Translations under genes and position numbers: made by a program
Shown: one piece after another, positions 1 to 59,105 of the stretch
Layout: each line of letters begins with the position of its first letter
How positions within the stretch are numbered: the stretch's first letter is position 1
Virus record (IMG/VR): IMGVR_UViG_3300021400_000154
Span: 32,001-96,000 of that record
From: a virus
Taxonomy: Duplodnaviria > Caudoviricetes
Length of the DNA stretch: 64,000 nt
Direction: 5' to 3' (one strand)
Notes under the pieces: model-generated
What the model saw: the letters and a program-made list of their open reading frames with translations, nothing else
Databases searched by the model: none
Told to the model about the DNA's origin: nothing

Positions 1-93
1 ATCCGCAACCTCGAAAATGAACGTATTGGAAAGAAACGCAAAAAATGCGTCTCTTTTTCGCATTATATTTTCATAACAATCAGAGGTGATCTC

Positions 94-2784: not shown

Positions 2785-2835
2785 ACATGTGATTAATAAT
2801 CAGGGTACCTTAGTTTCGAAGAGGAGGTGAGGAGC

Positions 2836-3323: not shown

Positions 3324-3365
3324 TGCTGGTGCTTATGCACAGCGATTACGAGAGGTGATGGAAGC

Positions 3366-5183: not shown

Positions 5184-5195
5184 GGCGGTGAGTCT

Positions 5196-5708: not shown

Positions 5709-5719
5709 GGAGTGATAGC

Positions 5720-6592: not shown

Positions 6593-6607
6593 CAGGAGGT
6601 GAGGCCC

Positions 6608-17627: not shown

Positions 17628-18455
17628 TTAATGCAAATACATGTAAAACAATATATCTGGGCCGAACGCATATTTATCTATGGCTATGTTTTGCGAAGGA
17701 ACGAATACTTTTTTTACTGGACTTTTGTAGAAACAAAATTTAGCAATCGATGTTATGCTCGGTGGCAAGATTACAGTATGTAAATTTTCAAAACCGCAAA
17801 ACGCCTCCTCTTCGATTGTAAGGATTCCATTTCCAATGATCAAACAGGACAATTGTTCTGCATGCCCGTTTGGATACCAGGAAGGAACTTTATCGTCTAT
17901 CAGCTCATAAAAATTAAAAGATCTTCTCCCTATCGTTGTAATGTCCGTGCCGTTAATCGTACTAGGGACACAGAGAATCTCTTCGCCTGATAAATCTCCG
18001 TAGGTCAACTTATTTCCTGTTACTTTCCAAAACGTAGTTATTGTGTTTCCGTTCAGCAACGTACCGTTTGCTTTATAAGCGAAATGTAAAAGCAAATCAG
18101 AATATGACATAGAAATCCTTTTAGCGTCATATATTAGCCTATCTGACAACTTGAAGTATAAGCGTATTCTATGAATGCCATTTACACAATTATGAGATAT
18201 TAAATGCGCAGTTTGCTCAGTTCGCCCATTGGAAAAACGAGACGCTGCATCTGCAGAAATGGTATGAAAAGCATTCATATCTATATCCCTTTGTTTGGTG
18301 ATCATGTATTCACCAAACAACATATGCTGATATTGGTTGTTGCTTTTACTCGTCGAAACAGTATATTGTAATAAAGCTATTTGTTTGTATTCGGCATCGC
18401 TTATTTCGACTTCTGCAACAACACATCCGTCAATCATGAAACAGTTAATCTTCAT
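17628..18455 (-). CDS. moron: BspA-type leucine-rich-repeat protein
   Basis: AT-rich and antisense to the tail operon; LRR_5-like repeats TIEEEAF.GFENLHTVILPPSITSIAKFCF; no TAG; ends in TAA. Confidence 0.7.
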   Translation of the reverse strand: MKINCFMIDGCVVAEVEISDAEYKQIALLQYTVSTSKSNNQYQHMLFGEYMITKQRDIDMNAFHTISADAASRFSNGRTEQTAHLISHNCVNGIHRIRLYFKLSDRLIYDAKRISMSYSDLLLHFAYKANGTLLNGNTITTFWKVTGNKLTYGDLSGEEILCVPSTINGTDITTIGRRSFNFYELIDDKVPSWYPNGHAEQLSCLIIGNGILTIEEEAFCGFENLHTVILPPSITSIAKFCFYKSPVKKVFVPSQNIAIDKYAFGPDILFYMYLH

Positions 18456-18529: not shown

Positions 18530-21500
18530 ATGCCGAATGATCAAGTAGTACTTGATGTCGTTTTTCAGCCTCAAGTAGAAAGCCTGATTCAATAGTTGCA
18601 TCAGGCATCACAAATTGCGTCAGATGACGTTCAAACAATGCTTACCGAATCAATAACTCAAGCTGGATTATTGGCGAAAGAATCTGAAGGCTTTTAGTCT
18701 CAAAGTATGCCTCAGGAATATGTTCAAATGGCACAATCTTTAATGAATGCCATGAATAAACAAGTTCAAGACATCATCGCACAGCTTAATAAGGCATCGC
18801 AAGATGCAACTTCTTCTGGGTTTGAGGATGGTATTATCCAAAGAATAAAGACTACAATAGGTTCGCTTACTGCGAACATTATAGATCAAACTTTTTCAGT
18901 TGGCGCTATGAAAAATATTGTTGGTCAGATAGCACCTGATATGGCACAGTCTTTTGCCCAAAACTACAGAGATTACTATTTGCAAGCAAGTAGACTTATG
19001 GCAAGGCAAGCCAAAAACCCAGCAACAAACGGCGAATGGATGAAGTACCTTGATTTAGATTCTGGCTTTGCCGCTGGTCAAAGAGCTATGATGCAACATT
19101 TTGGGTTGTCAGAAGCTCAAATGAGACTGATGCAAGAATCAGTAGTGCGCAGCCAGCCAAATCAAATACGTATCGATTACGCCAGAAATGCTGTTCGATA
19201 TTCAGGTGGGGCCATGAAGAAAGTTGGCGTGATCCCACAATATATGACATATCAAGAACGGCTACCTGCTTTTTATCAGGGCTTAAGCAACCAACCACAA
19301 ACAACAACGTTGTCCCCTGATGAAAGGCAGGCTTTACAAGCAGAAGTAAGTGATGAGCAATGGAAAACAATCAGAAGTATAGCCGCTAGCAACCCTTCTT
19401 TTGAAAAAGCTCTTATTATGGCTGGATTAGCCCAAAGAACAGTCCATAACAAAGCGGCAGGTTAGTTAGTTATGCCACAAAAGCCAGTAAGTACTGAATT
19501 GGTTGCAAGAGCGATTGGCCATTTACATAGAGATATAATGATTCCTTAGCTCGAGGGAGCGCCATCTAATTACAGAAAAATCACATAGACATCTGGTGAG
19601 GATCAGATGGCAATGGCAAATGCAGATTAGAAAACAGTGTTAGATATTATCGATGCGTTTCATAAACTTGCTCCATTGGGTATTTCTCCCGTATATGGTG
19701 ATGCTGTTACACGCCCATATAATCCACAGACTGGCGTTTCGCGTGTACGAGGTGCGAAATCTACTGCAGCTCCAGAAAGATATCAGATTATGAGTTTAAC
19801 ATGGGATGATTTCCAAAAAGGAGTTATGCTTGATCCACATGGCCCTGTTCAAAGCGAATATGAAGAAGGCGCAAGGGGCACATCGACAAACAAGATGATT
19901 CTTGAATCGGGTTTCACAAGAATGCTCGGCATGCATGGTAACAACACGTTCGGTAATGGAAGCAAAACAGATAATAGTTCGCCTTCTATAATACAAATTG
20001 ACTTGTAGGATCGATTATTAAAGAAACGTAAAGACGGAGAGTTAGAATGGGAAAATGGACACGTTGTTCAAGATGAAGATACTGCGAAGCTAATCGAGCG
20101 TATATTTACTATTCCGCAAGGCCATTCTCACCCGAGAGTTCAGTTTGGCCAAACTGGTATTCATTATGTTCCTACTAATGTGAAGAATGGCGTGATTACT
20201 CTTGGACGGGAAGATGCTGTTGAAAGTGCAATCAGCGATTCTATAAGACTGACAGGGCATAATGTGCTCGCTAATATGGTTGACCCGAATACTGTGTTCT
20301 AGACATATACTGATTTGAATAAACAAATCGAGGCATACAACAGAGACTTAACTCCGTCTGTGCCTATTGAAAGAATGGGCGGAAAGCTTCCTGATAAAAA
20401 TAGAATCGCATTTGTTGATCTGTCTTCGTTTACAGGGAAAAAAGATAGTAAGACTGGCCGTAATGACTATCACGATGGTTCATCCTTTTTTATGCCTGGC
20501 TTTATTCCAGGTGGCAATGCAACATACAGAATCGCCGGACAAAAGGGCACAGCTCAAACAGTTGATTTCCGTGCAATGATTAGAGATTTATACGGCGATG
20601 TTGATCATTTTTATTTGCCTGCATTGAATGCTCCGAAAGAATACAAAGATGCATTTAACCAGCATGGTATTGAAAAAGTTAGAGAAATGATGCAACAACG
20701 AGGAGAGTTGTAGAAATTCGAAGAATATTTCCTTGATGCGTTACAGTTTGATGCGCTTATATAGGACTCAGTCATTAAATCGCCTGCGTACAAAGGCTTG
20801 ACGAACGCACAGGCGCAAGATCTTTTTTATAAAACAAAAGAAACCCCTATGGGTATGGGCATTGTACAAACAGCAAGCCAGTTTTTGACAAAAGGGAAAC
20901 TTTCTCTTGGCAGACAGTTATCTCAGCATTTAGACTTAACACCAGAGCAGATAGCAGAAAACAGAGAGTTGTGGGAGAACTATATAAATATGCTCAGATA
21001 TAGGCCAGAAGAGACTGCAAAGAGGTTGTTTTCAAATCCTAACAATTCTTTGGATTCTAAGATAATGGCTAACCCTGGATTAATGTGGGATGACCCAGAA
21101 GCAAGGTAGATTGTGCTAAACGAAATATCTAAAGCTATGATTTCTATGGCGAACGGAGAATTGTTTTAGGATGGATTATCGCCTTCTGCTCTGGCCGCAG
21201 CGAACCCAGCAAAGATATTAATGGATGCAGCCAGCAGAAATGGCCTTAAGATACAGAATCCATTACTTGCGCGAAGGCTTACACTTGGAACTGGTAAACT
21301 TGCTGCAGGATTCTTGGATGATGACGAGATAGCAGTTGGAAGATGGCCAATGACACCTGGAGAACAATATAGTGCCCAACTATAGAAAGATTACTTGGAG
21401 GCTGGAAGAAAGTACGGGCTCGCAGATGACGTTTTTTATACTGATGCCGGATTTATCGGAGCAATGGGAGGCGGAGATGTCGACGGCGACACGATCCAGG

Positions 21501-24500
21501 CATTAAGAGGAAGACTTCGTGATTATGTAAAAAACACAATAACTGCAAGAGCTGGTAAAACCGGGCAACGTGATGCGTCTTTAATACCAGAACCTTTGCC
21601 AGCAAATCAAAAAATAGGGCCAAGAGTTTTTGCAGATCAAATGTTCAGAGCTGCTCAGCAGCAGATCGAATTAGGAATGGTCTCTAGAGCTCAAGACGCT
21701 TTATCCCAACTTCCTTGGATTGACCCAGAAATAGTTAGACAATATGGGCAAGCGAATGCAGACTTAGCCATGCAATATGACGTAGATTCGACTTTTTTGA
21801 AGACAGGCGTATTGGCGAACTGGACTCAGGCCTCAAAAAATGCAAGGTATTTAGGCAGACCTTTCAGTCATGTATATAAAGACCTTGTTGGAGCTATCCA
21901 AGAAGGAGATTATTCGAAAATAAGAAAAATGTAGGAGTTGAACTTTCCAAGTCGGTATCATGCTTTGACGGCTTAGATGATGGAAAGTTTATACCAGAAT
22001 CCAATAAGTAACACAGCTATTGACAAAATGATTGCTGCTCAAGAAGATTTAGAAGGAATACCTCAGCTTGAACAAGGAGAGCTATATCAACGAAGTCAAG
22101 CCGCGTTCTTAAGAGAAAACATACGAGTGATGTAGCAATTACTCTCTTCAAGAGCTGGTTTTGTTTCAACCGAAGATTTTGAAAACCTTGGAGCAAAAGC
22201 AAAAAAGTGGCAAGCTGACGTCCAAACAGAGCTTGCTCGACCTGGCATAGACGAAAAAAGAAAGAAAGTTCTTTTGGAGAATTTGGGACTTGCACAACAG
22301 CAACAATACCGTTTAGATCGCTTAAGACAGTTCGGTGTTATTGAAGGAGCTACAGACGGTTATGTTAGCTTGTTTAAAAACACTAGAGGCACTTCTGGAT
22401 AGTCTGTTTTTAGTGTTGCGCAACAGCAAGCCACGGATGCAGAAGCAGCTGAGGTTGCGGCAAGAGTTGGCGCCAATCCAACAATGATAGCAGCGATGAG
22501 AACTGCTGCGGAGAATGCGCAAATCGCTGACGCTAAACGAAAAGCCGAGAGCGCGAGATATAGTTTCTCTCAGTTGGCTCTGTTGGATAAAAGCCCTGAA
22601 GAATGGTTTAATCGGTACATAGCTAAATCAAGCGAAACAGAAATGACGCCAGCAATACATATTGGCAACGTTGTTGATAAACTTACGACAGAATGGGGTT
22701 ACAGGAGACTAGCTGAACAAAAAGGGCAAGGAAAAATGCTTACTCCTGATGAGTTTGAAAAAATGTTTGTTGCCTTGTTTACAGGAAACTTTGATCCATC
22801 TTCTTTTATAAGCGGTTTTGACGAGCGCGAACGCAATAAGTTTACAGATGCGGCGAAAAGGCTTGGTTTTCAAAATGGAATGGAACATCCATCTGACAGA
22901 TATAGAAATGCTTTAGCATATGTTAGAGCGATGCCTTTCATGTTGCCAGATGAGGAAATATTGGAATGGGATGATAATGGAGAGAAAAAACCATCTGTTC
23001 AAGTACGCGTTCGCCCTGATTTCGGAACAACTCCTTCGGGAAGCAGGGTAAATAGTATTGGTTTTGTAGACTTGATCACGAGAAATAAACATACAGGTCA
23101 GATTACAGAATGGGACACAAAAGCAAATAGCGACCAAGAAGGACGTACTGGAGGCATCAATCAAGTATATTCTTATAGTACAGATCCTGCCTTCCAGCCT
23201 TCTCATATTGGAATCTTAGCGTACAATGATCCTGAACACACGGTAACACAGCTTCCTTTTTCTAAAGAAAGACAAGATGAAGTCCGAGCTATGACTAGGG
23301 ATATTCTTGCTCAACGTTTTTTAATCGCTGAGCATGGAGACAGTTGGGATTTTATTCGGAATCAGTTCTATCCAGGAATGAACGAAGCAGCAGAACGCAC
23401 GCAAACTGAAGCCGAACATCAACAAAGTAGATCTTTTATGGAACAAGGAACTGGAATGGCAATGGCCAAAGCAATGACGTTGCAAAATGATATCACAGAA
23501 TATGAACAACGCATGCAACAAATAACACAACAACTACAAAATGGATTAAGGCGTAGAAGCGGGGATCAAACAGATAATCCTTGGGAGTCTTTTGATGCGC
23601 AGTTGAATGCTTCATTTGATGCAAGAAGACGACAGTTGGTAAAAAGGGGAGCCAACAAAGAAGATTTGGTAGGTTTAGACGAAGAGAGAAGAAAAGCTGC
23701 GGAAATGTTCGACAAAGCTTTAATGGAAGCGGCCGGTGGAGAAAAATCCGATATCGTTCAAACAATAAACGCGCTAAATGATTAGTTCGCTAAGCGACGG
23801 TCTGATTCCGGTTTGACAACTTACATTCAGGAATTTGAGGGCATTGAAAAGGCAGTTAAATAGGCTACTATGGCGTTTGACGTGTTTGAACAAAAGATGG
23901 CAAAAAAGAAGAACTTGTCGCAGAAAGATCAAGAAGCTCTCGACCGTGGAAGACAGCAAAGAGAAGAGCTTACTGGTTTGGCAGACATACAAAGGCGCGC
24001 TATATAGGAAGAGGCAAAACGGAAAGCATTGTCGCAAATAGAAGATTTTGCAATAGATCAAGGTACCATGGAAATGACTCCAGAAATAAGAATGCAGCGT
24101 ATCAAACAAAAAAGGGCAGAAGAACTGATGCGTACTCAGTTAGCCATAGGAGAGTTAAAAGATAAAGGCCTTTTATCGGAAAAAGATTTCGAATCAATGT
24201 CTAGCAGTATTACTGATATGCTTGGCGATCAATAGCTGGGTGCTTTTGCTGCGCGCGCTGAACGAATCCGACTTGGATTAGAAACAAAAACGCCTGAACA
24301 AATGAGTCAGGAGCGTTTGAGAGATATTCGAGCAGCGATTGCAGCATAGGTTGAATCTGGAGGAGACAGTCCTGAAGTTGCCGCAGCAAGAGAAAGAAAA
24401 CGTGCAGCTGATAAAGCTTTGGAACAAGCACAACAACAAGCTGCGGAAGCGCAACAGGCAGCGGGTGGTAAAACAGTTACAGCTGAAGATGTAGCGGCGG

Positions 24501-27500
24501 CAAATGCTACAGTAGTATCAGCAAAGTCCAGACTTAAACAGTTGCAATAGGAAAGAGATCGAATAAGTACAGATATACAAACCCGCACATCTGCTCTTAC
24601 AGGAACTCAGGCTGAACAAAAAGCTCGTCGAGATGCTCTTCAGTAGGCATATGGCGAAGCGAAATCAGCCTATGAGCAAGTTGTAGCTGCCCGCCCTGCA
24701 GACGGAAGTAAGGCTCTCGAGGAGAAAAAGGCAGCTTTGCAGGCAGATTTAGAAAAGCGAAAGAAGATTGGTACTCCGGAGCAAGCGGAAGAAGCTTTAG
24801 CGCGAGAAAAAGCAGAATTAGAGAGACTTACTGCAGCAAGCGGAACTGCATAGCAATCTCTGAAACAAGCCCGCGCAAGCCAAACAATAATGGATCAAAG
24901 AAAGGAACAGCAGGATATTATTACAGCTGCGACAAAGGATTTAGAAAAACTCAAGCCAGATCAGGAAAGAATAACAGAGGCACACACTAAAGCTAAGGCA
25001 GCCAGAGCTGCTGAAAAAATACATAAATTACAACCCCAACTTGGTGGGAAAACCCCGGAAGAAATCTTGCAAGAAGAAGAAGACGCCAAAAAGGAACTTG
25101 AACAGGCTCAGAAAGAAAAACAAAGAGCAGAGCATGATGCAACTGCTTATTGGGGTAGCCGAAAGAGGAAGGGTTTGAGTCAACAAGGCGACTTTAAGGC
25201 AATACGTGGAGAGCTTTTAGATCACCTTAGTAAACTCAGTCCCACAGAGCTGAAAGACCTTGGGTTTATATAGCTTGCACCTGATAAAATGGACGAGGAT
25301 GCATTGGCCTCTACCCTCAAATACAACGCTGGTGCTTTTTCTAGATCTCGCGACACATCCCTTTCAGGACTTGCAGCTTAGTTTGTTGAAGCCTGGAAAG
25401 CGGAGAAAGATTTCCGACCGATTTCAGGAAGAGTAGAGGAAGCACAAGGGAGAGCCGCAACAGCTCAAGCAGCAGTAAAAGGACTTGAACAAAAGGCCGA
25501 AGCAGCAAGGAAAATACAAGATCTTTTGCGTGATACTCCTGGAGCTAAAGAAATGCTGTCAAAAACAGACGAAGAACTCGCCGGCTTTAAAGAAGCGGAA
25601 GATGCTCAGAGCGTATCCGAGAAATAGCAAGCAGCACAACAAAAGATAAGCGCAGCTTTGCAAGAGTTAGCTAAACTTCCTGAACCTAAAGAAGTTGATG
25701 TCAAAGGGAAACAACAAGAAGCTGCCGAAGCGGCTGGAGCAGTGGATGCTCAAAAATTGAAGGTTGAAGCAGCAGAACAAAGATTAAAAGACGCTAGAGA
25801 ACTGGACACACGAATCAGAAGTTTTCCCACTCTGACAGAGCTAGAGGAACAAATCGAAGCCGAAGGGCAAAAGCAGACCGATGCTGCCGAAGCAGAACGC
25901 AAAGCAAAAGAAAGAATGGATCAAGCACAAGAAGCGTTAACTGCAGCTACGCCACAAGACACTACAACAGCTCAATCAGAGATCGCAAGCTTGAAACAAC
26001 AGCAAGCCCAAAACCAAACGCAGATAGAAGCTCAACAGGCAGTAGTAGCACAGGCGGAAGCAAACCTTGCGGCAACAAATGCTGCTGCTCAAAACCCTGA
26101 TGAACGGATAGCCAATGCGAATGCAGCTGTTGAGAATGCGCAAAATGAAGCAAACCAAGCAGCCCAGGATCTGGAAGACGCAATAAAGAAACAGGATTCC
26201 ACTGCGAATCAAAGTATTGACGAGCAAATGAAACCCCATGTTGAAAGAGAAAACCAAAAGCTTGAAAGAATCCGTCGGAAAAGCGAGCGCGCCAGAGAAG
26301 ATTTCAGGCGTATGCTTACCGGCGAAACATTGACTCCAGAGGAAAGAGCTGCCAGGTCTGAAGAAGACATTAAATTCGCGCTTCAGGAAGCAAGAGACAA
26401 AATGTATGAAGATGGCAATCAAGATTGGCAAAAGCTTGATGAGATCCTTGGCAATGATAGTATGTGGGCATAGTTCAGGCAGCGTACTTAGCAACAGGAA
26501 AAGACCATGGACCAGCTTGCTCAGAACGATCTCGAGCGTACTGCTCAAGACCTGCAGAACAGAATAACCGGACACATGGAAACGAAGGAAGAAATGGAGA
26601 ACAGAGCGATCCAGACGTTCAGGGATCAAATCATTCAGAAGCGTGATGCAGCGAAGAAGAAAGGATTGGATACTTAGGCTTATGACAGGATGCTTGAGAA
26701 GGATGAGAATGGACAAGAACAGCTCAGAGGCGATTTACAGGGTGCCATCAAGGAGCAAACGGATTTACAGAGACAACAACAGATCGCTCAGCGGAGAATG
26801 CAGAATCTCGGTATTCTCAGGCGCGTATCTGGTTTCACAAGCACGACAGATGCCGCTGCTCAATATGAAGCTCAGAAGCAACAGGACCGTATTGCTTTTA
26901 AGAATGCAAGAGACAAAGCTGAAAATACAGCGGAAGCAGAACGCACAGAGCAAGATCGTGCTCTCCTGGCGATGACCGAAAAGGATTGGGAACGGCAATA
27001 CGACGAGCAGAATCTTGGAATGCAAGGGCTTGGTACAAGGGACGCTGCGAGAAAAAAAGCACAAGACGATTACCGCAATAATAAGGGTTATATTCAAGAA
27101 ATCCAAAACAGCGCCTTGTAGGATACAGAAAAGGCAGCAAGACTTGCAAGATTTTCCAGGTATCTGGGACAAGACAGACAGCTTATTTCCGAGGAAGATT
27201 ATGTCAATCAGGAACTGTAGTTATTTGATGAAAGAGCTGATATAGCAAGAAGAAATGCTTTGCAAGGTATAGATCAAGCGGCTGATGCTTCTATGCAATA
27301 CAGGTTAGGAAAGCTTTCTAGTGGGCGGCGTGCGTTAACTAGCTTTGGTATGACGTCGCAAATGGAGCTTTCAAGGCGTTTATCAGCTTTCAATCAATCT
27401 GCTGCCGCGCGCAGGAGTAGCGTCTCTTTATCTTCAAAAATCAAAGAAACAGAGACAGAGCTCGCCTCGCTCACAGATGCAGACAAAGAAAAAAGAGCTA

Positions 27501-30500
27501 CTCTTGAAGCCAGGCTACAAGCTTTGCGCGATCAACAATCATTAGCTGATACGCAGTCTGAAGAAGCAGAGCAGAGAGCTCTCGGAAAAAACAAAAAGTA
27601 TCAAGCCGCAAGAGGAAAATACGATCTCGCAAGACAAGCTTACGATGCCGCGTTGAAAAACAATGATTCTGATTAGATGGCAAACGCAGCACAAGGTATG
27701 CGCGACGCCGAATAGGAAATGCAAAGAATCGCGGCAACATCTATAAGCGCGCGAGCTTCCCTCTCTGCTCTTGGGCAAACGTTTGCTAGGGTTGGCATGC
27801 AGTTCGGAAGGCGCATATTCCAGGCAGCCATTCGTGAAGCGACTCAGTTTGTCAAAGTATATGATCAAACCATGCATCAGATTCAAGCCATAACCATGAA
27901 ATCCAACCAGGAGATGGCTACAGTCAGATCTTCTACGATAACTCAAGCTATAGGTTTAAAAACCTCTGCGACAAACGTTGCACAGGTCAAATCAGAGTTA
28001 TATCGGCAAGGGTTATCTGATTCGCAAGTTAATGACAGAACTGATTCGATTATAAAGTTTTCTGCTGTCACAGGGATGAAGGCAACGCAAGCAACAAAAG
28101 CTCTCACTACGGCGTTGCAAAGCGGACTTGTTAATAATATTCATGAGGCAATGGACGCGATGGTCGCTCTGGGCGATAGCGCAGCAACGACAGCTGAAGA
28201 AATAGCAAAAGGTATGCAAAAATCTGCTGCGGCTGCAAAAGTTGCAGGCGTGTCTTACGGTGAACTGACATCCATGTTAACAGTTATCACCAGCAAAACT
28301 CAGCTTGGCGGCAATCAAGCAGGCACAGCGCTTCAAACGATATTCAGCCGGATGCGCAGAGTAACAAACGAAGGTATAACCAGTGATGAAGGCGGAGAAA
28401 TCACAAGCGTCAATGATGTCGAAGAATCTCTTCAACGTGTTGGCATTTCTATGAGAACAGACGCTAACAGTTTCAGAGATACGTTGGATATCCTTCGCGA
28501 TCTTGCAAAAGTTTGGAATGATTTGAATGACATACAGAAGAACAATATCATGTATAATATGGCTGGCGCAAGACAGAGCAATATGTTCTCTGCTTTAATG
28601 GAAGGATTGGCTGATGATAATGGTAAGACATTTGATAAATATCTTGGGCTTACTGAGGATAGTGATGGGATAACTCAGAGCAAATACGAAATCGTAATAT
28701 CAAACATCAATGCAGAACTCGACGAACTGAAAACCACATTCGACGGGCTTGTAGAAGCAGTCACAAACAATGGATTGTTAACGTTCTTCATCGACCTCGC
28801 AACAACCATTACTGGTTTTGTCGCAGGAGTTTCCGATGGATTAGGAGCTATCCCTTAGCTTCTCTGGGCTATTGCTGCTGTGTTAGACGTGGTGAAGATT
28901 AAAAGCGCTGCAGTGGCCGTATTCAAAGGATTGGCGAATCCTGCTACGTTAATAGGGCCGATTTTAGGCCTTCTGGCTGTTGCAGGAGTAGGCGCTTTGG
29001 GATCACACATAAGTGGATCAAGAAAAGCAACAGAACAAAATACTGAACTGAAACGACAAGCCGATTCTGACTTTCTAGAACATGCATCCAGTGTTCGTAC
29101 GGATAGCATAGAAAAAGTGGAAAAAGCACTTGACAAAGTAAAGCAAATGCAAAAGATAGATGTCGATATGGAAACAGAAGAAGCCCAAAAAGCGCTGGAA
29201 GATCTCAAAAGAAGCACAAAGGCGATAGGTGGCAATATCTCTGATTGGCCAAATGCCGTAAGAGAGGCTACAAAAGCTATAAATGAAGCGAGAAAAGAAA
29301 GTGCACTATTTTTACTCGGACTTGGGGATACTGGGGCAAAGGATCTCCAGACAAAATATAATAATAATGTTTAGACATATAATGGTGCCATCTAGTAGTC
29401 TGATTTTGAAGACGGCGGTATATTATATGGCAGATCAATTTTCCAGGGTATATCTCAAAAGGACTTAAAACCTTACTCAACACAAGACGGTAAAGGCGGC
29501 TATACTTACGAAAGCTTGATAAATGATCATTAGAAACTTGACATGAAAGCGCCTCGTAAATCTATGACTTATAGAGATGCGATGAAACAAGATTTAGAAA
29601 ACATTGGTATAAAGACAGAGGGGCTGTAGGACACAGACTTGATCGATTTGCACGGTGTATACTATTACAGTGGCCTTTCCCAAAACTTTAGGCGCGTTAA
29701 ATACAACAAGAATGCAGGCAATCAAAATCGTGATAACCAGGAATATGCTTACGAATTTTTTAAACAGCTTTCTGACAACACAAATCAGCAAAATATAACC
29801 ACTTCATCATTGAAACGTGTAGAATCATGGTTTGATCTGTGGACTAAAACAGCAGGATATGAAAACTTTATGAATGCTCATGGTGGACATATAGGTTCAT
29901 ATACAGCAGGTGGTTCCTTTGAAGACTTTGCATCTGTTATGGCAAAACAACAATACGAAGGAGTTAGAAATGAAGTTATTGGGTTATGGGATTAGGACGA
30001 AACAAGAAACGAAATCGCAACAAGAGCTGCTGAAGAAAATGAAATTCTGTCTAATATGGACAGCTTGTTCGTTCAGTCGCTTATGACTAACGATGATGCA
30101 TATGGGCCAGCTGTAAAACTTTGGACTTAGGGTAACGAAAAGTTTAAGGATCGCATTGTTTCCGAATTTCTTGATTACGCAAAGGACCAAGGTATTACGC
30201 CGAATTATACAAATGTTAAAGAGTGGCTAATGAAACAAATTGAAACTTATACTTCTGATGAATTCCTGCGGATGTATGGGTCTCCCGAAGACTTTGAGTA
30301 TTATTATTCAGATTCAGAAGGCAATCCATTGTTTGGTGCGCATGATTTATAGCGAGAAGCAATCCTTGAGGCGTACAACGAAGAAGTTGCGCTTGCCGAG
30401 AAAAACGGTAACACCAAACGGGTTGAGGTACTTAAAGCGCTGCAAGAAGAAGTAAGTAAGTATAATCCTTTGAAGACAAACAAAATATATACGTCATCAG

Positions 30501-33500
30501 GGGCGCAAGTTGGCGGTACTATTGGAAGTATTTTCGGAAGCACGAATCTTTCTTCTAAAGACTTGGGATACAGAACTGAATACGCACAACTGCTTGCGAT
30601 GGCTAACGGAGTAACAGACTATGACGCATTTAAAAATACAGAAGGATACACGACATTGACGGCTCTCGCGCAAAACGATACTGCTCTGACGACTTTAATG
30701 CAAGATGCTAATACCGGACGAGCTGGCCTTGCTGATATTATTGACTATCTTGAGAAAAAAGTCTATGGCGAAAACTATATACAAACAACAGCGTCTTCAG
30801 GTAGGGCCATATCTGAAAATAGACTTGATATTGCAGCGCTTAAAGATGAAACTAGTCCTTTGCCTGCTTCTGTTGCCAAGCGCGTCGCAAGCGCGATTAA
30901 TCAAAACGAATCGTATGTTTATCAAAATAGACAGGCCGCTGCAGCTATGCTTGAGTAGACTACCGATCAAAACCAACGTGGTCTTGAGACAAAAGCTCGT
31001 GGATGGATAAGCGATCTATATCGGTTTGCGTAGAGAGAAGATATGCTTAAGGACTTAAGAAAGAACTATTAGAAAATGTCTGACGAAGAAATAGCAACGA
31101 TGTATGGGAGCTGGGGCATTACAAACAGATCGATGGCTGCGGCTGTTTCCAATAACAGTAAAGTCCTTAGTTCTGATTAGGAAGCAATGAATTATATCCA
31201 AGCTCTTGCTGCCCAGCTTCCTGGATTTGAATATGATAAGCAAACTGGCGGAATCAAGTTTACAGGTATGGATGTAAAAGGTTATGAAGATGTTTTGTCT
31301 TTTGCTCCCGTTATAACAAATCATGATGTAAGAGACCTTGCTGAGACAATGTTGAATGGTGCGGAAGGGAAAACGTGGAACGATTTTGTTAATAAAGCCA
31401 ATCAAGATATAGCAAGACAGTTAATGCAGCAAAATCCTGAACTGTTCACGTATATGACGATGACTGATGCTCAACGAAGAACAGAGGAAGGACAAGCCGC
31501 ATATTATACTGCAAGACAGCAACTTCTTACGTCTGAACTCCAAACGCTTGAAAAAATCGGGCAAATCCTTCCAGAGGCCACTCAAGTTGCACAACAACTT
31601 TCGAGCGGATCTTATGGAGATCAGATTGCAGGCATTAGTGGTTTTGGGTCTATGGTGCAAAGCTATGGTTAGATAGTTGCTCTTAGGCAGAAAATATCTT
31701 AGATGACAAACTTAAGCGATGAAGAATGGAAATAGCAAGGCGGAGAAGCCTACGTCAACAAGCTAGCCACGATGTTAGGATTGGATCCTTAGCTTTTTGA
31801 CAAGAGTAATGTTGACGAACTGCTTGAGCAGGGCAAAAAGAAAGCAGACAAAATATCTAACGGTTTGCAACAAATTATTGAATCTGTATTCGACATAGAT
31901 TTATCCAACTACGACAATCTGGAAGGCGTTATCGCTAAGCTCGAAGAAAGCGGAGACGCGTTATCAAGCTTTTTTGCCATACTATTAAGATCCCTTTCTG
32001 ATGTATATGGGTTAAAGATAAATGATCAGCACGAGCTCGATGTGGAAGGCAACGGCATTTAGGGAGCTCAAATATTCCAAAGTGCAGACGAAGAAGAGTC
32101 TTATTCGGATAAAGTCATAGGGAGAGACGCGTTAGCCGCGTTCTCAAGCCAAGCAAGAATAGCTTCGACTTCTGAAACACCTCAAACTATTGGCGATGTA
32201 GTTGGTTGGCTTGTGCAGCAAGGGATTATCTCTGAGACAAATCAGATGAAAAATATGCCTGGTTTTGCTGGACTATTAAACAAATACGGCGCAAACAAGG
32301 TTATTACTCCTGATATTGCGGACGAAATAGAGACGCTTACTCCATGGTCTTAGATGCTGGTTAACACGGAGTATGGCCGAAACGCTGATTTGTTTAGCAC
32401 AGCATTGAACGAAGATGGTACAATAAATCAAGATAGATTAAAGGCAATCTATAAGTCAGATGTCGATGGTTCATTTACTTCTTGGGCAGGCGACTTAACG
32501 TACTTACAAGATGCCATAAATGGTGTCGATGGCGCGATGGAAAAACTCAACAATGAAATCTATTACAAAGGTTTACGCGCCACACATGCATTTGGAGAAA
32601 ATACAGAAGAGATTGTTGATGGTATGGCAGACATGAATAAAGGTTTAATCCAGGCTACAAACAGATTCACCAAGTTCAATGAGACAACGACAAAAGCTCT
32701 AAACAACAAATATTACATCAATATGTGGAAAAAGGGAAACAGAGATTCGAAAGTTGTAGATTACATTTCTTAGCTAACGAAGATGGATAAAGAAATGGTC
32801 AGCTCCCGAAAGTATGACGCTCAAATTAATACATTGTTGGAATCTATTGAGCTTGGTGATATTAGCGCTATTGAAACAGAAGGCACTACTCTTATGGGAA
32901 GTTTAGGAGAACAGCTTCAAGGGATGCTTGACAAAGAAACGATGACTCTGCATCTGAATAATGTCGATGTGGATCTTTCAGAGGGATAGTACAATGTAGA
33001 TTTTAAAGATGTGAATACTAGGCTTGCAGGCATAATCAAAGATCAGCAAATGGCAATGATCAATACGCTGATGCAAGCTGGCGTCAAAGGCCACCTGGAA
33101 GTGTCTGGCAGCGGCGACAACATCGTTGTTCAAATGGTAATAGACGATATGGGCGAAGGTGTTAAACACACTGGTGGCGGTGGCGGTGGAGGTAAGTCAG
33201 CCGCTCAAAAACTGATTGATCGACTCAAACATAAAGACTCTGAGGCTGATCATCGCCTTAAAATGTTGCAATATGAGGAGACAAGATACGAGAATGCTGG
33301 AGAGATCACCAACGTCAACGCGTTAATAGGCCAGGAAAACACGCTTCGCGAAGAACTCAATAAAAAATATGAGGAAAACATTGAAAAGTTAAAAGAGCAG
33401 ATGGCGAAGACAAAGAAAAACACAGACGACTGGTACAGCCTGCGGGATGCCATCATGTCCTACGAGGAAAAGATCAAAGAATCGAATAACGCAATAGAAG

Positions 33501-34969
33501 AGAACAACCGGAAGATTGAGGAGAATCTGCAGAAGATTCGTAAGCTGCGCACTGCACTTGAGCAAACGGTCGAGCAGGAAATCCAGAACAGAATCAAGCG
33601 TGAACGAGATATGCTTTCCGGGACAGTTGATATGCAGAATACGGTTCTTGACGCGATCAAGCACCGGTATGAGGAAGAGTGGAAACTCGTCCAAAGGGAT
33701 ATTGACAAGAAGAAGTCTGCGCTTGAAGAAGAGAAGAACCTGATTGAGGAGCGGCTCAACAAGCGCAAGGAAGCAGAAGATGAAGCCCAGAAGTACGAGG
33801 AGCTTGCGGAACTTCGCAGACAGTATGCGCTGATCTCCATGGACTCCACCAGAACAAAAGATGCAACAGAGATGCGCAAGAAGATCACGGACATGGAGAA
33901 GGAGCTCGCCTATAAGTCAGCGGAAGACGAAGTGAAAGCGCGGCAGAATGCGCTTGACGAACAGATTAACGCTTACGACAAGTATACTGAGAACGGCGAA
34001 GAGGATCTTCAGATGCTGCTCGACAATGCGAATAACTTTGGCGACGAGCTCAACAAAGTTATTGGCATGAAGGACGAGGAGCTGTACAACTGGCTGATGG
34101 AAAACGTGACCGAGTACGCCAACAGCGTCAAGGAAGCGCAGAAGCAGATCATGCTTGGCTGGGAAGACACGTATAACCAGATGATTGGTTATACGCCAAC
34201 CTACTGGGATGGCTGGACTGATCTGGAAGGCAACGAGCATGCTGGTGTTTACGACATTCTGTAGAGCAGAGAATCGTATCTGGAGTTCATGAAGGAAAGC
34301 CAGGATTACCTCAACGCGTCCGAGACTGATAAGGCAGCCATGGAGTACGAACGTGGCACTGCTTACGACGAGTGGATTAACTCGCTCAAGACAGGTGCTT
34401 TCTGGGAACACTTTGATAAATGGATGGAGACGCTTGGCTTAAGTTCAGTGACTTCTGGAAACAGCGGAGGAAAAAACAAACCTGATTTGAATGACCAGTT
34501 AAAACAGTTAGGAGAAACAGCAGCCAAACTTACAGGTAGAACTGTCGCTGATCTGCTCGAGATTGAACGTAGATTCGGGTTGTATGCAGGGCAACAGTTT
34601 AACGCTGGGACAACCAATGCAAACGGTATTCCTGGAAACGCTTCCGGTGGCCTTGTCGACTACACAGGTCTTGCCTGGGTTGATGGATCGATAACGAAGC
34701 CTGAGGCGTTCCTGTCTGCTGCGGACACCGAGCTGATGCGCAACATGCTGGATGCTGCATCCTACCTTGCGTATCGTCCGACGATCAGCAATATCGACAG
34801 CAATGCTTTCGGCAAAGGCGGGATTAATATCGGAGACGTGAACATTACCATCACAGAAGCGAGTTTCAAGGAAGATGCAGACTATGAGCGGGTGGCCGAA
34901 CGGGTTGGCGCGGCATTCGTCAAAGAGCTTGGCAAGCAAGGATTCAACACAGCCAACTATGCATTCTGA
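18530..34969 (+). CDS. giant tape measure polyprotein (~5479 aa, >50 in-frame TAGs) with RNA polymerase-like and PD-(D/E)XK nuclease domains
   Basis: AGGAGG RBS and ATG 18530. All 21 long + ORF fragments from 18707 to 34289 share one frame, and every intervening stop I checked is TAG. TP901-type tape measure core at ~27800-28800 (GNQAGTALQTIFSR...NMAGARQSN); C-terminal ASGGLVDYTGLAWVDG..KPEAFL; ends in TGA. Confidence 0.85.
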
Positions 34970-35029: not shown

Positions 35030-36220
35030 ATGACTGGCGGATTTACTTTTAACGGTACAGACATTTCCATCCTCGGTCTGGAATACGTCCCAGACAATCA
35101 AAACACATACGTCTTCAGGCCATCGCAATGGAATATGAATGAGGAGACTTTCGATGCGCACGATGGCGGATATTATTACGGAACAACCGTGAAACCGAAG
35201 GACTTTTCGCTCAGGTGTATTTATGAGAGCAGACATGTGAACGACGGAATCTTGACGAGAATCTTTAATACTTTTAAGAGAGGAACAACCGGCAGACTTG
35301 TGTTCAGAAAGCGTCCATGGTGCTGGTATGTTGCGACTGTTGTTTCCGTTGATAGTTCACAGATGACCAACTACATGAACGGCCTGATCACGATTAACAT
35401 GAGAGCTTACTATCCTTTCGCGAGAACGGATAAGACATACATTACAGACGACGATGCTGCAGCAGAGCTCTATCCTGGCGGGCCAACGCTGGAGGAAGAC
35501 CTGTTGGCGAATACAGCCATGCTGAAAGGGATTGAGTGGGACCTGTCCAAGAACTTTGCTGAGACGCCGATTACATCGCAGCAAACATTCCATCTCTATA
35601 ACCCTGGCACAGAGACGGCTCCTGTTGCCATTGAGATCGCAGGCGATACGGGAACGGGCATTGTGATCACAAACTCAACCACCGGTCAGAGATGCGACAT
35701 CGCGCCTTTCGACTCTACGTCTGGTGAACATGCCGGGAAATACCTGATCGTCGACAGCTTAAGCGGCAAGGTGCTGCTGACAGATGGCTCAACGTCCACA
35801 ACATATGGTTTCCTGTACCACGACAATGGCTATATCGATTTTGCTTCCGGGTATCCCGTTATCAGAAATGTTCATGTGACAGGACAATCTGGCCAGAGTC
35901 AGCTGACCTTAAGCGAACCGATTGGAGGCAAAGAGTTGATCGGACATCAGCTCAGCATGTTTGTGTCAGGCCAATCCTGTCTGCTTGGCATTGCCGTTGT
36001 GGGGATTGCCAAGCTAAGCGTTCAAGGCACAGGAAGTATATTCAATGCAGGCATCACAAACGTTTCTGATGATGGGCTGACACTGTCATTGGACAAATCT
36101 CTTGCGTCCGATGTTGGGACCGATGCTTAGCTTGTGAAATACAATGAGATCACAATCACGCCCAACACAACCATGAATCTTACGAAGCTGATCTTCCGGT
36201 ATCGGCCAACATTTACTTAA
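35030..36220 (+). CDS. distal tail protein (Dit) (1 in-frame TAG)
   Basis: GFTFNG N-terminus, RAYYPFA and YNPGTETAP motifs; read-through of TAG 36128 gives the C-terminus LIFRYRPTFT-TAA just before the next RBS. Confidence 0.75.
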
Positions 36221-36232
36221 GGAGGTGAAGGC

Positions 36233-39200
36233 ATGCTTCGTTACAAAAGGAACCTGATTCTTGACGTGTACGATTACAGCGGCAATAAGCAATGCACGTT
36301 GTATGACAGCACATCAGATTTATCCGGCCAGGCTACAGACGTTGTCGTAACGATTGAGCGAAACGGCTGGAAGGAGCTGTCGTTCACCATCCCCACAACA
36401 TGCGAAAGCGAGAACGGCGGGCAGGAAGAAAACTTCCGACTGCAATACCTGATCGCTGACTATCGGATTCGCCTGAAGGATGATGATGGGATCGACTGGT
36501 TCCTGATCTCAGAACCAAAGATAACACATAATGTTTATTCGAAGAACGTGTCTGTGTCAGCAGGGCACATTTCTCAACTGCTGAAGACGAAGAATCTTGG
36601 TCTGGAGTTCTCCGACCATGAGGGCAATAATGTAGGAACAGCGGAAGATCTTCTGACAAAAATCCTCGATGGTACTGGATGGTCTGTCGGAAGTGTAGCC
36701 GACTTCAAAGAGAAGCGTTCCGGCGCAACCAAGATCCGCTCTATGAAAGCTTCTGCGAAGACAGGTGCTTTTAAGCTGATCTCCAACATGTGCGACCTGT
36801 TCGAGGCGAAGCCTGTTTACCATGGAGATTAGAAGACGGTAGACATTATTCCGATGAACCCGTTCTCAGAACCGGAGGATGGATCGCTGCCTGCTGTGGC
36901 GACAGGTGAATGTATTGAGCTGCACTACGGGAAAAACGTGAAGAACGTTACGAGAACGCTGAACACAGAAAACCTCGTGACGAAGCTGTATGTCTATGGC
37001 GCTTATGGTGATGCAGTGAACGGATACTGCGGTATTGACGAGTGGCATCACAAAGAATACGTGTTGACTCCTCCAGGAGCAATCCCTGCAGGTACGCAAT
37101 GCACATTCTCCGTGACGGACGATGTCTCGGGGATCACGTATACGAGATACTTTGTGGCGAAGAACGCGATCTCTGCGTCTGCAAGGCTGATATGGTAGAT
37201 GTTGGATCCTGCTTCCATGAGCTATGTATGGGATGAGGAGAACAATGCTGCCTATAGTGTGTCTGATAAGACAGATACCCATTACAACCTGATCATCAAC
37301 ACAGCAAATCCAAGCACAACTGCAGCAAAAAGGCCGCGCTTGATTCATCAATCCAGCAATACGGAATCTCGTGCAGGAAGCACTGCCGCAACAGCAGAGC
37401 ATGGCATGAAGGTAACTCTTAACTCACAAATCAAATATCAGTATATTTATTTCGGGCAGAGCACTAATGGGAAAGGAACCATGCAAGGACTGGAGCCTGG
37501 GCAAACATATACCATGTCTTTCGATGCCACGTGGAAACTTGAAAGTGGGCGGGCAACGCCTGCAACAGATAACTTTGTTGTGTTTATTAACATAGACAGA
37601 GGAACAAATACATACTCAACACTTACAAGAAAGACGATCAAAACCTTTACAACAGGAGAAGAAACATAGGACAGATGTGAATCCTTTACTTTTACTATTC
37701 CAAACGATTGCGTCAGGTGTTATATAGGAATACGTGCAGACAGTTCGACAGCCGCCAATTATGCGAAGGGTGACTTCATCGAAATCCGAAACGTCAAACT
37801 CGAAGCAGGTTCAGTTGCAACACCTTGGTGCCCATCGGAATCTGAATAGACGCTGACTGTCACGGAAACAAATGTTGTTGACAACAAGGTATCCTATCTG
37901 ATGGACTTCGATTATTACCGCAGCGTCGGGCTGTTGACGGATGAGATGCTTGACGAGGTAGGTGCTTTCCAACGCGAGATTCCTGCCCTTTTGGATACTG
38001 CGCAGACGAACGCTGCAGCGTACGCCTCCACTATCAACGATCTGTCCGAGACGATTGGAACGCCTGATTTCTGCAAGCTCTCCGCGCAGTATGATACAAG
38101 CGGAGAATACCTTGGGTTAAACTTGAACACAGGAACAGGCGGTTATCCGAAAGGTGTTATCTACAGAACGGACTATGCGCTGAAGGAATCGAAACAGTTC
38201 CAGTGGAGAACCACGAGTAATATATACCCGAACGGAGACCCGTATGAAAACTATGCAGCGGTGGTTTACATCGTTCACACACATACGGATCCTTGCACAT
38301 ACGACATCGGATATCTTCGTGCGGTTAACGATCATTTGGAACCAACAGAAGATGATCAGAAAGCACCGACAAAGCTGTCCTTGTGGCTCAAGAGTGCAAA
38401 CTTCGATGATTCTCACTCAAACACAGATCACATCTATCTGTTCAGGCAAAACAGCATCATCGGCGACCTTGGCGCGATGATGCTACAGGACGAGACGGCG
38501 GAAGATACGCTTAAAGACAGCGTAAAGAACCAAATCAAGGGTGATCGCCTCGTGTATTATACGGATCAGGCGATCACAAGAGAAAATCCTGGATTTAACT
38601 TCGTTGGATATGCCTGGGCGTGGAGGTATTACAAAGATAACTCGCAGCCATCTGAAATGTACTTCTGCGATCTTGATGCCGGAGACGTAAGCTGGCACAG
38701 GACTTTCGTTACAAAGAATCCTCCAGCGAACACATTGGGTTCTAACCAGGATTACGCCTATTGCTGGAAAGAAGGAACATTATACCGGAAGAATGGCAGC
38801 GCCTGGGAAAAACAAACAAATAAGTCTACCGTCGACGACAACTTCGGCAGGATGGTTTCCAGTTTCGGCACCGTGTACAACAGCTGCGTTGATCGCGACA
38901 TGATCAGAAACGGACACTATGAGTATTATGCAGTGGATGCCCAGGAAAACCTGCCGGTTGGCAACTACGCTATCGCAGACCCGTTTGGAGTCTACCATGC
39001 GTTTACAACGAAGGCACAAACCGATCAAGGAAAACGGATATCTTTCGACTGGACGCACGGTTGGGTGGCGATATTTAACAGCGGTACAGACCCGTAGAGT
39101 GTCGACATCACGACTGTGATTGATGACGCTCTGACCAGTTCCCAGTACCGGTATGATTCTGTATTCGACAGCGGCGAGGATGTGCTAAACGATGCGATCT

Positions 39201-41641
39201 GGGAAAGCGGCTCGATTACTGCAGGCTCTGATCCCAAAGCAGGAAGCCCGTACATCATTATGGGCGGTGGCGAAGTCATTGATGCTTCCTAGCAACGGAC
39301 TGGATTCAGAGGCATTTATCCGAAGATTATCTATCGCCTGACCCGCCCTGGAAATCTCGAATGCGTCGTTCACTTCTATACAGCAGAGCACGGGTATCTT
39401 GGTTGCAGAACACTCAGCGCCGGTTCTTCCAGCGACAGTACTGTAACGGAAATCACAGCGCCTGCGTACGCAAGGTTTGTTCGCGTTGTAACATCCGCAG
39501 AAGCGAGCACCGAGTCTTTCTCCATGCAGTCAAAGTATGCCGATCAGTCCTTTGTTGTGCAGGAAGAGGAATACAGAAACCTCGGCATTGGCACAGGATA
39601 TGGAAAGCTAAAAGGTATCATCCCGATGATTAAAAAGTTCCAGGAGCTATCGGACCTGGCATATCTGGTCCAACTGGACGCGGTAAAGACAGCACAGGCG
39701 GCAGTAAAGGAAGCAGAGAATCATCTGATTGATGTGCTTGGCGATATTTATCGGGAAGGCTATTGGCAGAAGGCCGACTATGTGGACGGCGACGAAGAGA
39801 AACTGTATGACGATGGAATGGAAAACCTGAAGAAGATCGCTAAACCAGATACTACTTATAACGTTCAGTATCTGGATCTCTATGGGGCGAACACAGCAGA
39901 GCACGAGTATGCAGAAAACGGCATTGTTGCTAAGACGTACTGGCCTGATCTAAGCTCGAACTATGCGGTTCATCTTGTGGACCCGGACATCGGCATCAGC
40001 CAATGGGCGTTCATTGACAAGATTTAGAAATGCTATGACATGCCGTGGAAAACAACCATCAGCATCAATACGAACCTGACCACAATACAGCAGCATACGT
40101 TTACGGATGTCATGACGCACATCGCAGATGTCGCATCCCAAGTCAAAGGGAAAATGGAGCTGTATGACAGAGCCAAAGCATTCGACGAAGATGGAAAGAT
40201 GTCGACCTCTACGTTGCAGGGCGTTATTGATGCGAATACGCTGCTGATCACAGGCGGCGCTTCTACATGGTATACAGACGACAAAGGCAACATGGTCTTT
40301 GTCTCTGCCGATGAGAAGAGCGCAATGACGTTAACTGGCAACGGGTTTGCAATTGCGAACCAGAAAGACGAATGGGGCGAATGGATCTGGAGAACCTTCG
40401 GTACTGGCTCGGGGTTTACCGCTGATCTGATTACAGCCGGTACACTTCAGGCAGACAGAATACGGGCAGGTTCTATTACGCCTGCGAAAGCTTCGCCAGA
40501 CTTCGGAACCTACATCGACCTGACAGAAAACGGCACGATCATCGAGAATGCCAATGCGGCGAAATCATATACAGATGGCAAGACACAGGAGACAATGCAA
40601 GAGGTTACGAACGTGACGCAGAAACTGAATGCTGTGAACGGAAGGTTCGACAACTATGTTGAGCAAACGGTTTACAACGCAGACAAAGATGTCGTCGACC
40701 GCAGAGTGTCCTCCGTGGAGCAGACAGCGAATGGCGTAAAGACAACGGTGGACGATTACATCAACGAAATGGGAACCTGTGTAGAGATTACCACGAACGG
40801 TCTCGAACTGCGTCAACGGCAGAACTCGGAGTACTACGCGATGCTGACGGCAAACTCGATTGACTTTAAGAACAGGTCGAATGGTGATTCTGTTGCTTCG
40901 TTTGGTGCCGGTGGTGCTTACATTGACAAGGTACGATCCAGGAAAGTTCTGTCGGTCGGTACTGAGGAGAACGGCTGGTATGACATGACAGCGCTTCCCG
41001 GTGGCGTGGCAGACAAGTGGCGTGACGGTACTGCTTCTGTGCTGAAGCCGATCATCATTAAACAGCCGGAAGATTACTATGCGGATTTCCAGGCTGGATC
41101 ACATCCTATCACAGGGACTACCAACTGGCCAGAAGCATTTACTTTTACCGTGGAAGCTGAAAATGTTGCTTCGTATCAGTGGCAATACAAAACTGCGTTT
41201 AACGCAACCTGGATTGACGGTTCCGCTGAAGGCAATAAAACCAACACGCTTACGTCTACTTTAAACGCCCAGCGTCTAAACTTCATATACAGATGTCATA
41301 TCATAGGCAACGATGGAACTGAACTGTATACGAATGAAGTGCAACCCAGAATGAATAATGCTCCTGTTATTCTCGCTCAGCCAAAGCCAGCGTATCGGGA
41401 AGTAGCAATTGGAGATGTCGTGCAACAAAGATTCTATGTTGTCGGAGCAACATCTTATCAATGGCAATACAGAACAAGCGCAACTCCAACTGGCAAGTTC
41501 AAAAATGTAAGCGCAAACTCGAACGCTCCTACTCGCGACGCAACTTCGGCAACTGCCTTGAAGCAATACTATCGTTGCGTTGTAACAGGGCCAACCGGAG
41601 CTATTGCCGTGACTGACGAATTTGTCATCGAATGGAAGTGA
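36233..41641 (+). CDS. baseplate hub/tail spike (Tal-like, ~1802 aa, 7 in-frame TAGs)
   Basis: Six ORF fragments in one frame, joined over TAGs at 36830, 37196, 37667, 37847, 39095, 39290 and 40025. Prophage tail endopeptidase-like N-terminus (YGKNVKNVTRTLNTENLVTKLYVYG), CBM-like insert (NVKLEAGSVATPW), FTADLITAGTL spike motif, two C-terminal Ig-like repeats (SYQWQY). Confidence 0.8.
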
Positions 41642-43568: not shown

Positions 43569-43582
43569 AGGAGTGTGATAAA

Positions 43583-58996: not shown

Positions 58997-59017
58997 CCGA
59001 TCATCTCCTTTTAAGTT

Positions 59018-59102
59018 CGCGGAGTACAGGATTTGAACCTGTGGTATGTCGCCATACGACGGTTTTAGAGACCGCTGCAATAAACCACTCTGCCAACTCC
59101 GC
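59018..59102 (-). tRNA. amber-decoding tRNA (anticodon CUA) with serine-type body
   Basis: GCGGAGT-TG-GCAGAGTGGTTTATTGC-A-GCGGT-CTCTAAA-ACCGT-C-GTATG-GCGA-CATAC-C-ACAGG-TTCAAAT-CCTGT-ACTCCGC-G; anticodon at 59066-59068; long variable arm; G73. Confidence 0.92.
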
Positions 59103-59105
59103 ACA

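Follow-up and report, generated by a model that had tools for sequence, protein, structure and literature searches.

We analyzed a 64,000-nucleotide (nt) stretch of phage DNA, i.e., positions 32,001-96,000 of IMG/VR record IMGVR_UViG_3300021400_000154 (hereafter the window; "contig" coordinates refer to the whole record), and found that one giant open reading frame (ORF), intact once TAG is read as sense, appears to encode a tail tape measure protein with a two-barrel RNA polymerase domain near its N-terminus. At 110,614 bp and with a terminal overlap of ~107 bp, the contig that makes up the record is probably a complete circular assembly. We consider it likely that the protein is a tape measure bearing a polymerase and a probable nuclease as N-terminal cargo, delivered as for gp96 of phage P23-45 and used for early transcription; catalysis, virion packaging, injection and template are here inferred by analogy. 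A preliminary description of the same DNA had placed a two-barrel polymerase inside the tape measure, hidden from standard-code annotation by TAG codons, and had taken this architecture to be unknown. The reading frame, the motifs and the predicted fold bear out the first part, while the claim of novelty fails, since P23-45 gp96 is an experimental precedent (PMC10770324). Each of the three outcomes that the description had set out as refuting it (no predicted double-psi beta-barrel fold, a DxDGD not conserved in homologues, and a true stop ahead of the TP901 core) is excluded by the results below. The central features are:

18530..34969 (+), giant tape measure ORF, 5,479 amino acids (aa), with 57 in-frame TAG codons and a TGA stop, between tail tube/chaperone genes and Dit
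19874..22006 (+), predicted two-barrel RNA polymerase domain, giant aa ~449-1159 (AlphaFold2 model, VIA-align, Foldseek)

In the standard code, 18530-34969 falls apart into numerous short ORFs, so that annotation misses the gene unless TAG is sense. With TAG as sense, the same interval forms a single frame of 5,479 codons with 57 TAG, no TAA, and one TGA, the terminal stop. The two remaining frames are dense in TAA and TGA (201 and 363 together, respectively), and the openness of the giant frame is therefore not due to chance. No TAA or TGA intervenes between the polymerase motifs and the PhageMin_Tail core at aa ~3143-3346, i.e., no true stop separates the polymerase region from the TP901-type core. 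The earliest TAGs include codons 22 and 56, eleven TAG sites fall within aa 440-1300, and five lie between the first and the last polymerase motif. Neither part would thus yield a product without read-through.

We then evaluated the fold of the polymerase domain. An AlphaFold2 model of aa 440-1300 built from a homologue alignment reached a mean predicted local distance difference test score (pLDDT) of 87.7 and a predicted template modeling score of 0.83, whereas single-sequence prediction of aa 500-1150 was unusable (pLDDT 37.9). Searched against the PDB with Foldseek, the model matched QDE-1 (E 1.5e-10), maize and Arabidopsis RDR2 (~1e-8 to 1e-9), P23-45-type gp62/gp64 (~4e-4), gp96 (1.5e-3), and crAss-like gp66 (0.29). 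VIA-align gave matches over model residues 10-720 to RDR2 (Z 17.6, 501 residues, 3.8 Å), QDE-1 (Z 16.7, 514 residues), the P23-45-type non-virion polymerase gp64 (Z 14.6, 415 residues), and P23-45 gp96 (Z 11.1, 384 residues), as well as to crAss-like phi14:2 gp66 (Z 6.6). Model residues ~440-560 also matched designed and natural double-psi beta-barrels (DPBB) and bacterial beta-prime (Z ~8-9), and the best matches in BFVD were phage proteins named RNA-dependent RNA polymerase. Between the barrels, the model contains a segment of ~140 well-ordered residues, which hints at a clamp element. The domain matched no Pfam family even at E 10, including RdRP family PF05183; PHROGs and PDB phmmer searches of the polymerase region returned no match either. 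Nor did tblastn with the domain find a match, in a tape measure or elsewhere, among 50,697 records of deposited phages. Overall, the structural comparison supports, as a high-confidence prediction, a single-chain polymerase fold with two DPBBs, belonging to the clade of QDE-1, RDR, and YonO. The last of these is the single-chain DNA-dependent RNA polymerase of phage SPbeta, which transcribes late genes (PMC5467207).

Relatives of the giant protein were sought in an exhaustive HMMER search of 1.84 billion representatives. This yielded 49 relatives. About 20 are giants, 3,900-5,900 aa long, in which the domain occupies the same place (aa ~430-1330), and the family spans at least 20 clusters at 50% identity. 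By BLASTP, all giants share a collinear plan in which the tape-measure core is flanked by an N-terminal module of ~1,900 aa and a C-terminal module of ~800 aa. Full-length relatives are 30-43% identical in the polymerase domain and 27-35% identical over the N-terminal module, and every one seen retains the fusion. TAG usage varies widely across the loci of these relatives: 16 in L005, 14 in each of L007-L009 (open frames running off the locus ends), one in L006 and in L014, and none in L010-L013. The called gene of L006 translates under table 11. Relatives' frames that end within their loci run to 3,300-4,100 codons, and those reaching the locus ends to as many as ~4,700. In L005 and L006, PhageMin_Tail lies in the same protein, followed by Dit- and Tal-like genes, and the relatives' tail module carries the SPbeta-type domains YOMG_N and YonB. 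By these SPbeta-type modules alone, candidate hosts would be Bacillota. A scan of 185,579 species-representative genomes found no relative.

These data bear on whether the fusion could be an artefact, either of a chimeric contig or of separate TAG-ending genes that merely look fused under read-through. Such an artefact would fit with the giant ORF being visible only once TAG is recoded. Against it, TAGs appear already at codons 22 and 56, and another eleven are spread over aa 440-1300; relatives with zero or one TAG have the same continuous ORF. Moreover, the whole stretch is present in one independent public sequencing run, and bovine and sheep gut runs hold pieces 95-99% identical to it, with the TAGs at 20711 and 20762 retained in a bovine gut fragment. 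We thus consider an artefact extremely unlikely and, judging from the sequence, the polymerase-tape measure fusion is genuine. At the RNA level, the source-sample metatranscriptome had no contig matching the stretch, and no RNA run was among those carrying it.

The sequence motifs expected of a two-barrel polymerase were recovered in order. Four of them, listed in the preliminary description, lie at the coordinates given there and all in the tape-measure frame: HDGSSF (giant aa 648-653, nt 20471-20488), YRIAGQKG (aa 666-673, nt 20525-20548), GRWP (aa 937-940, nt 21338-21349), and DVDGD (aa 983-987, nt 21476-21490). Together with a fifth motif, they can be assigned to the following predicted elements:

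20471..20548 (+), first-barrel (beta-subunit-like) motifs HDGSSF...MPG...YRIAGQKG with basic residues (conservation; aligned with the YonO-orthologue family)
21338..21490 (+), second-barrel (beta-prime-like) motifs GRWP....E and GGGDVDGD with putative metal-binding aspartates (conservation; DPBB structural matches)
21785..21808 (+), DSTFLKTG, bridge-helix-like motif downstream of the catalytic loop

In a MAFFT alignment with 25 homologues, the G of DG, R..G.KG, R.P....E, and G..D.DGD were each at least 90% conserved. Specifically (in fragment numbering), G211, R228, K233, and G234 of the first barrel were at least 90% conserved, its RxxGxKG motif with the basic residues (R228, K233, G234) being nearly invariant and aligning to the same motif in the YonO family, and R499, P501, E506, G541, D544, D546, G547, and D548 were nearly invariant. 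Among these, R499, P501, D544, D546, G547, and D548 were conserved at 90% or more in alignment A1 and invariant in alignment A2, so that DxDGD is invariant or nearly so in the homologues. DSTFLKTG, which aligns with an ...AKTG motif of the YonO family, belongs to a family consensus YDIDSTFxKTG, with T649 and K652 invariant in A2; the motif resembles the DTALKTA of beta-prime. A domain that had lost catalysis and persisted only to plug or space the tape measure structurally would hardly be expected to keep R.P....E, the three aspartates, and the first-barrel basic residues (nearly) invariant in relatives of as little as 30% identity, and we give this alternative next to no weight.

Translation of the giant ORF requires that TAG be decoded, and a candidate for this role is encoded in the window:

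59017..59103 (-), suppressor tRNA with anticodon CUA and a long variable arm, adjoining tRNA-Ser(UGA); required for translating the giant ORF

In BLASTP alignments to homologues, TAG sites aligned with Ser 3.5x above background (e.g., 19 of 24 at codon 367 and 21 of 28 at codon 1135), and Gln was not enriched. Because Ser is enriched at these sites and Gln is not, TAG most likely stands for Ser rather than Gln. Reading Ser instead of Gln alters 11 residues within aa 440-1300 and none in the polymerase motifs. We know of no NCBI translation table in which TAG encodes Ser.

The identity of the giant protein as a tape measure is indicated by both its domains and its neighbors:

27956..28567 (+), tape-measure core, PF10145 PhageMin_Tail, giant aa ~3143-3346 (E 2.3e-26)
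28775..29017 (+), about three transmembrane-like hydrophobic segments, giant aa 3416-3496 (Kyte-Doolittle)
35030..36220 (+), Dit, directly downstream of the giant ORF (phrog_33 Dit, E 6.9e-19)
36233..41641 (+), Tal-like protein, 1,802 aa (phrog_6211 minor tail protein, E 1.6e-18)

The PhageMin_Tail match scored 93.4 bits (Pfam cut-off 33.2), and eleven PHROG tape-measure families matched the same part, the best at 2.5e-33. Within the giant protein, 19-residue Kyte-Doolittle windows of 1.6 or more were confined to aa 3416-3496. Over aa ~1750-3050, A/E/K/L/Q/R are abundant and aromatics scarce (AEKLQR content 0.58-0.65 over aa 1751-3000), a composition from which we infer a helix-rich spacer of ~1,300 aa. 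Upstream of the giant ORF lie genes for terminase, portal, capsid, and two tail-tube-like proteins, and the gene sits between the tail tube/chaperone genes and Dit/Tal, the position expected of a tape measure; this order is shared with relatives L005 and L006. Given PF10145, the PHROG tape-measure families, the transmembrane-like cluster, and Dit and Tal downstream, the product is, by its domain content and gene order, a single 5,479-aa tape measure protein of the PF10145/TP901 type.

Directly behind the polymerase, we detected a second putative enzymatic domain, which we treat as a lead:

22427..23449 (+), probable PD-(D/E)XK nuclease domain, giant aa ~1300-1640 (ESM Atlas; lead only)

ESM Atlas queries were made with TAG-free stretches of the window. 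For the nuclease region, they gave a score of 0.96 and 178 shared features, with 26 of 30 matches in PF12705 clusters, and GxxD...DxK...Q...Y columns are conserved in the family (alignments A1 and A2). A PF12705-like PD-(D/E)XK nuclease is therefore the probable identity of this domain. Scores remained below 0.9 for the N-terminal part (aa 57-311).

The genome also holds two further DxDGD proteins, both outside the window:

contig 4790-7627 (-), YonO orthologue, 945 aa, TAG-free (Pfam RdRP PF05183, E 2e-5; phrog_8308, E 1e-157)
contig 26461-29685 (-), third DxDGD polymerase, TAG-free from a start led by a ribosome-binding site (RBS) (phrog_8308, E 1e-22)

The 945-aa protein shares 33% identity with SPbeta YonO over 86% of its length (E 4e-107). 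When families were compared by hhalign, the fused domain aligned with the YonO orthologues over 566 columns at 91% probability (E 1.1e-6), all motifs coinciding, which ties it to PF05183 indirectly, i.e., via the YonO-orthologue family that itself reaches PF05183. Neither pairwise BLASTP nor single-sequence hhalign linked the fused domain significantly to the two stand-alone polymerases, yet hhalign picked the correct motif. A YonO orthologue was found in all five relatives' genomes searched (76-151 kb, three of them complete), and three of the five showed a second, weaker match. These alignments are best explained if the fused polymerase and the YonO-type enzyme of the same phage are old, distant paralogues.

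Some features of the stand-alone genes merit separate mention. In the complete genomes G001 and G002 (loci L018 and L019), the YonO orthologue lies in two or three pieces, 0.3-0.7 kb apart, which could reflect an intron, an intein, or a homing-endonuclease insertion. For the third polymerase (locus L003, contig 26461-30069 (-)), the start is probably at contig 29685; two TAGs lie upstream of it in a small leading ORF from 29961, the first being the would-be stop of that ORF. The N-terminus of this protein (MKKLFALILALVLAFCAGW) resembles a signal peptide or lipoprotein peptide, an unusual feature in a polymerase, and the protein also has a helix-hairpin-helix motif.

Among known systems, the closest in layout is gp96 of Thermus phage P23-45 (Chaban et al., Nat Commun 2024, PMC10770324). 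This tape measure is 5,002 aa long and bears, at its N-terminus, an active virion RNA polymerase of the two-barrel type, with a DFDGD loop at 779-783. The enzyme is found in virions and transcribes pre-early genes including that of the non-virion polymerase gp64, and the authors described the fusion as previously unsuspected and the enzyme (PDB 8H2M/8H2N) as flat and clamp-less (PMC10770324). No other tape-measure fusion appears in the supplements of that study (PMC10770324), the Oshimavirus neck paper makes no statement on polymerase location, and our literature search retrieved no paper describing another tape-measure-fused polymerase family. The layout is thus not new; what is new is its occurrence in an unrelated group of uncultured phages. 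Both proteins are giant tape measures (5,002 aa in gp96, 5,479 aa here) in which an N-terminal region of 330-440 aa precedes a single-chain two-barrel polymerase, predicted as such here, near the N-terminus (DFDGD 779-783 versus DVDGD 983-987), and both genomes encode a separate, non-virion two-barrel polymerase as well. However, we found no sequence similarity beyond the DxDGDT loop: against gp96, the best blastp match (E 0.037) fell outside the polymerase, hhalign reached 2.7% over the DFDGDT loop only, and hmmsearch gave E 0.45. The model is also nearer to QDE-1/RDR2 and gp64 than to gp96, QDE-1 and gp64 both bearing a clamp, and has ~140 ordered inter-barrel residues where gp96 has 67 disordered ones (PMC10770324). 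In addition, Pfam found no metallopeptidase here, a probable PD-(D/E)XK nuclease lies behind the polymerase, the source is a gut metagenome rather than a thermophile host, and the gene is hidden by TAG recoding. Hence, the pair of fused and YonO-type polymerases parallels gp96 and gp64, yet by sequence the fusion probably arose independently.

Other known two-barrel enzymes were also compared. YonO belongs to the same clade and has its orthologue in the phage's 945-aa protein, with the fused domain as a probable distant paralogue and YOMG_N and YonB in the relatives' tail module as further SPbeta-type traits; however, YonO is free-standing and non-virion, whereas the polymerase here is fused in the tape measure. 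QDE-1 (2J7N) and RDR2 (7ROZ) are the best structural matches (Z 16-17.6, ~500 residues, root-mean-square deviation 3.8-4.5 Å), but at 10-13% identity, and they are cellular RNA-silencing enzymes acting on RNA or single-stranded DNA templates, not virion proteins. Finally, gp66 of crAss-like phi14:2 (6VR4) is likewise a two-barrel polymerase within a very large ejected virion protein, although the match is weak (Z 6.6, Foldseek E 0.29) and gp66 is the product of a separate gene of a podovirus-like virion and is not itself a tape measure.

The likely scheme, i.e., delivery with the tape measure followed by early transcription, can be laid out in order. The N-terminal third of the tape measure would serve as enzymatic cargo, with the polymerase at aa ~449-1159 followed by the probable nuclease at aa ~1300-1640; beyond it would come the ~1,300-aa helix-rich spacer, the PhageMin_Tail core, a hydrophobic cluster for membrane insertion, and the conserved C-terminal module. 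Because TAG codons from codon 22 on require an active suppressor tRNA, the giant gene would be translated only late, with the other virion genes, once the phage tRNA(CUA) reads TAG as Ser. An enzyme made late and welded to a virion protein would therefore most simply be destined for the next cell. Tape measures are expelled ahead of the DNA, with the N-terminus head-proximal. The giant protein would thus be assembled into the tail and expelled on infection, the head-proximal N-terminal polymerase reaching the cytoplasm with the incoming DNA. There, it would transcribe the first phage genes without the host polymerase, with the probable PD-(D/E)XK nuclease co-delivered, and the two TAG-free stand-alone polymerases, which need no suppression, would then carry the program on.

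A different fate would be cleavage of the giant product as a polyprotein, such that the polymerase (and nuclease) act late in the producing cell, e.g., on late or lysis genes, and the C-terminal part alone enters the tail. Tape measures are often processed, and the domain here is bulkier and more QDE-1-like than the flat gp96; its relative YonO, moreover, transcribes late genes (PMC5467207). We nevertheless judge this outcome unlikely, as two stand-alone TAG-free polymerases are already available to the phage inside the cell, and the fused part of the P23-45 protein is found in virions (PMC10770324). The fusion also persists in every full-length relative seen despite low identity (30-43% for the polymerase domain, 27-35% for the N-terminal module), which argues for co-delivery. 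Alternatively, a delivered domain might act mainly as an RNA-dependent or single-strand-templated polymerase or primase, priming replication or making double-stranded RNA instead of driving early transcription. The best structural matches, RDR2 and QDE-1, have RNA- and single-stranded-DNA-templated activity (PMC9508822). Still, YonO, gp96, and gp64 are DNA-dependent transcriptases (PMC5467207, PMC10770324), phi14:2 gp66 is so titled in its PDB entry, and the YonO family is the nearest sequence relative, which together make such a role very unlikely.

Delivery with the tape measure and early transcription remains our preferred reading, with several points weighing against it. The functional analogy with gp96 is purely one of architecture, as sequence comparison revealed no similarity to that protein, and every relative is uncultured. 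A real difficulty is the bulk of the modeled QDE-1/RDR2-like domain, which would be hard to fit in or through a tail tube: it aligns to QDE-1/RDR2 over ~500 residues, against 384 for the clamp-less gp96, and has an ordered inter-barrel segment. Proteolytic processing or internal starts may also alter the giant product.

More broadly, and tentatively, these observations could reflect a convergent fusion, in which a duplicate YonO-type polymerase and a PD-(D/E)XK nuclease were grafted onto the tape-measure N-terminus in a clade of ~75-150-kb phages (the contig sizes of the clade's IMG/VR records) with SPbeta-type tail-module domains. The tape measure would then be a multi-enzyme injection vehicle with a clamp-bearing passenger, and would head a host-independent relay of three polymerases whose late step is gated by a TAG-to-Ser switch. 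We regard this full scenario as possible, if somewhat short of probable. If true, it would show that tape measures can carry a QDE-1-like polymerase with a clamp, against the notion that the enzyme must be flat and clamp-less. So far, a small group of Thermus phages is the only one in which tape-measure-fused virion polymerases have been demonstrated, and a second, sequence-unrelated lineage in gut runs suggests a recurrent strategy and not a curiosity. It would also offer a mesophilic system for the storage and tail release of a ~700-residue enzyme. Standard-code annotation hides such genes in recoded phages, and the nuclease and three-polymerase set suggest a largely host-independent early program.

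Beyond the giant gene, a 37-nt element (AAATCCGCAACCTCGAAAATGAACGTAATGGAAAGAA, with 0-5 mismatches) occurs in six copies in the 110.6-kb genome, with no further copy at up to 9 mismatches:

window 1-35 (+), 37-nt element copy
window 62303-62339 (-), 37-nt element copy
contig 2669-2705, 7805-7841, 19835-19871, and 99354-99390 (all -), 37-nt element copies

Five copies are followed, 10-60 nt on, by an RBS and a start codon. The copy at window 1-35 heads the plus-strand virion operon, in which the first ORF found begins at about window 94; another precedes the YonO orthologue, and another heads a minus-strand unit with a tRNA cluster including tRNA(CUA). We consider this element a candidate promoter of a phage polymerase; the relatives' loci yielded no copy. 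Directly after the tail genes, a TAG-free ORF of 1,263 aa at 43550-47341 (+) had no PHROG match and a weak match to CBM_5_12. Between the tail chaperone genes and the tape measure lies a TAG-free minus-strand gene (17628-18455 (-)), whose equivalent in L005 carries an LRR_5 domain.

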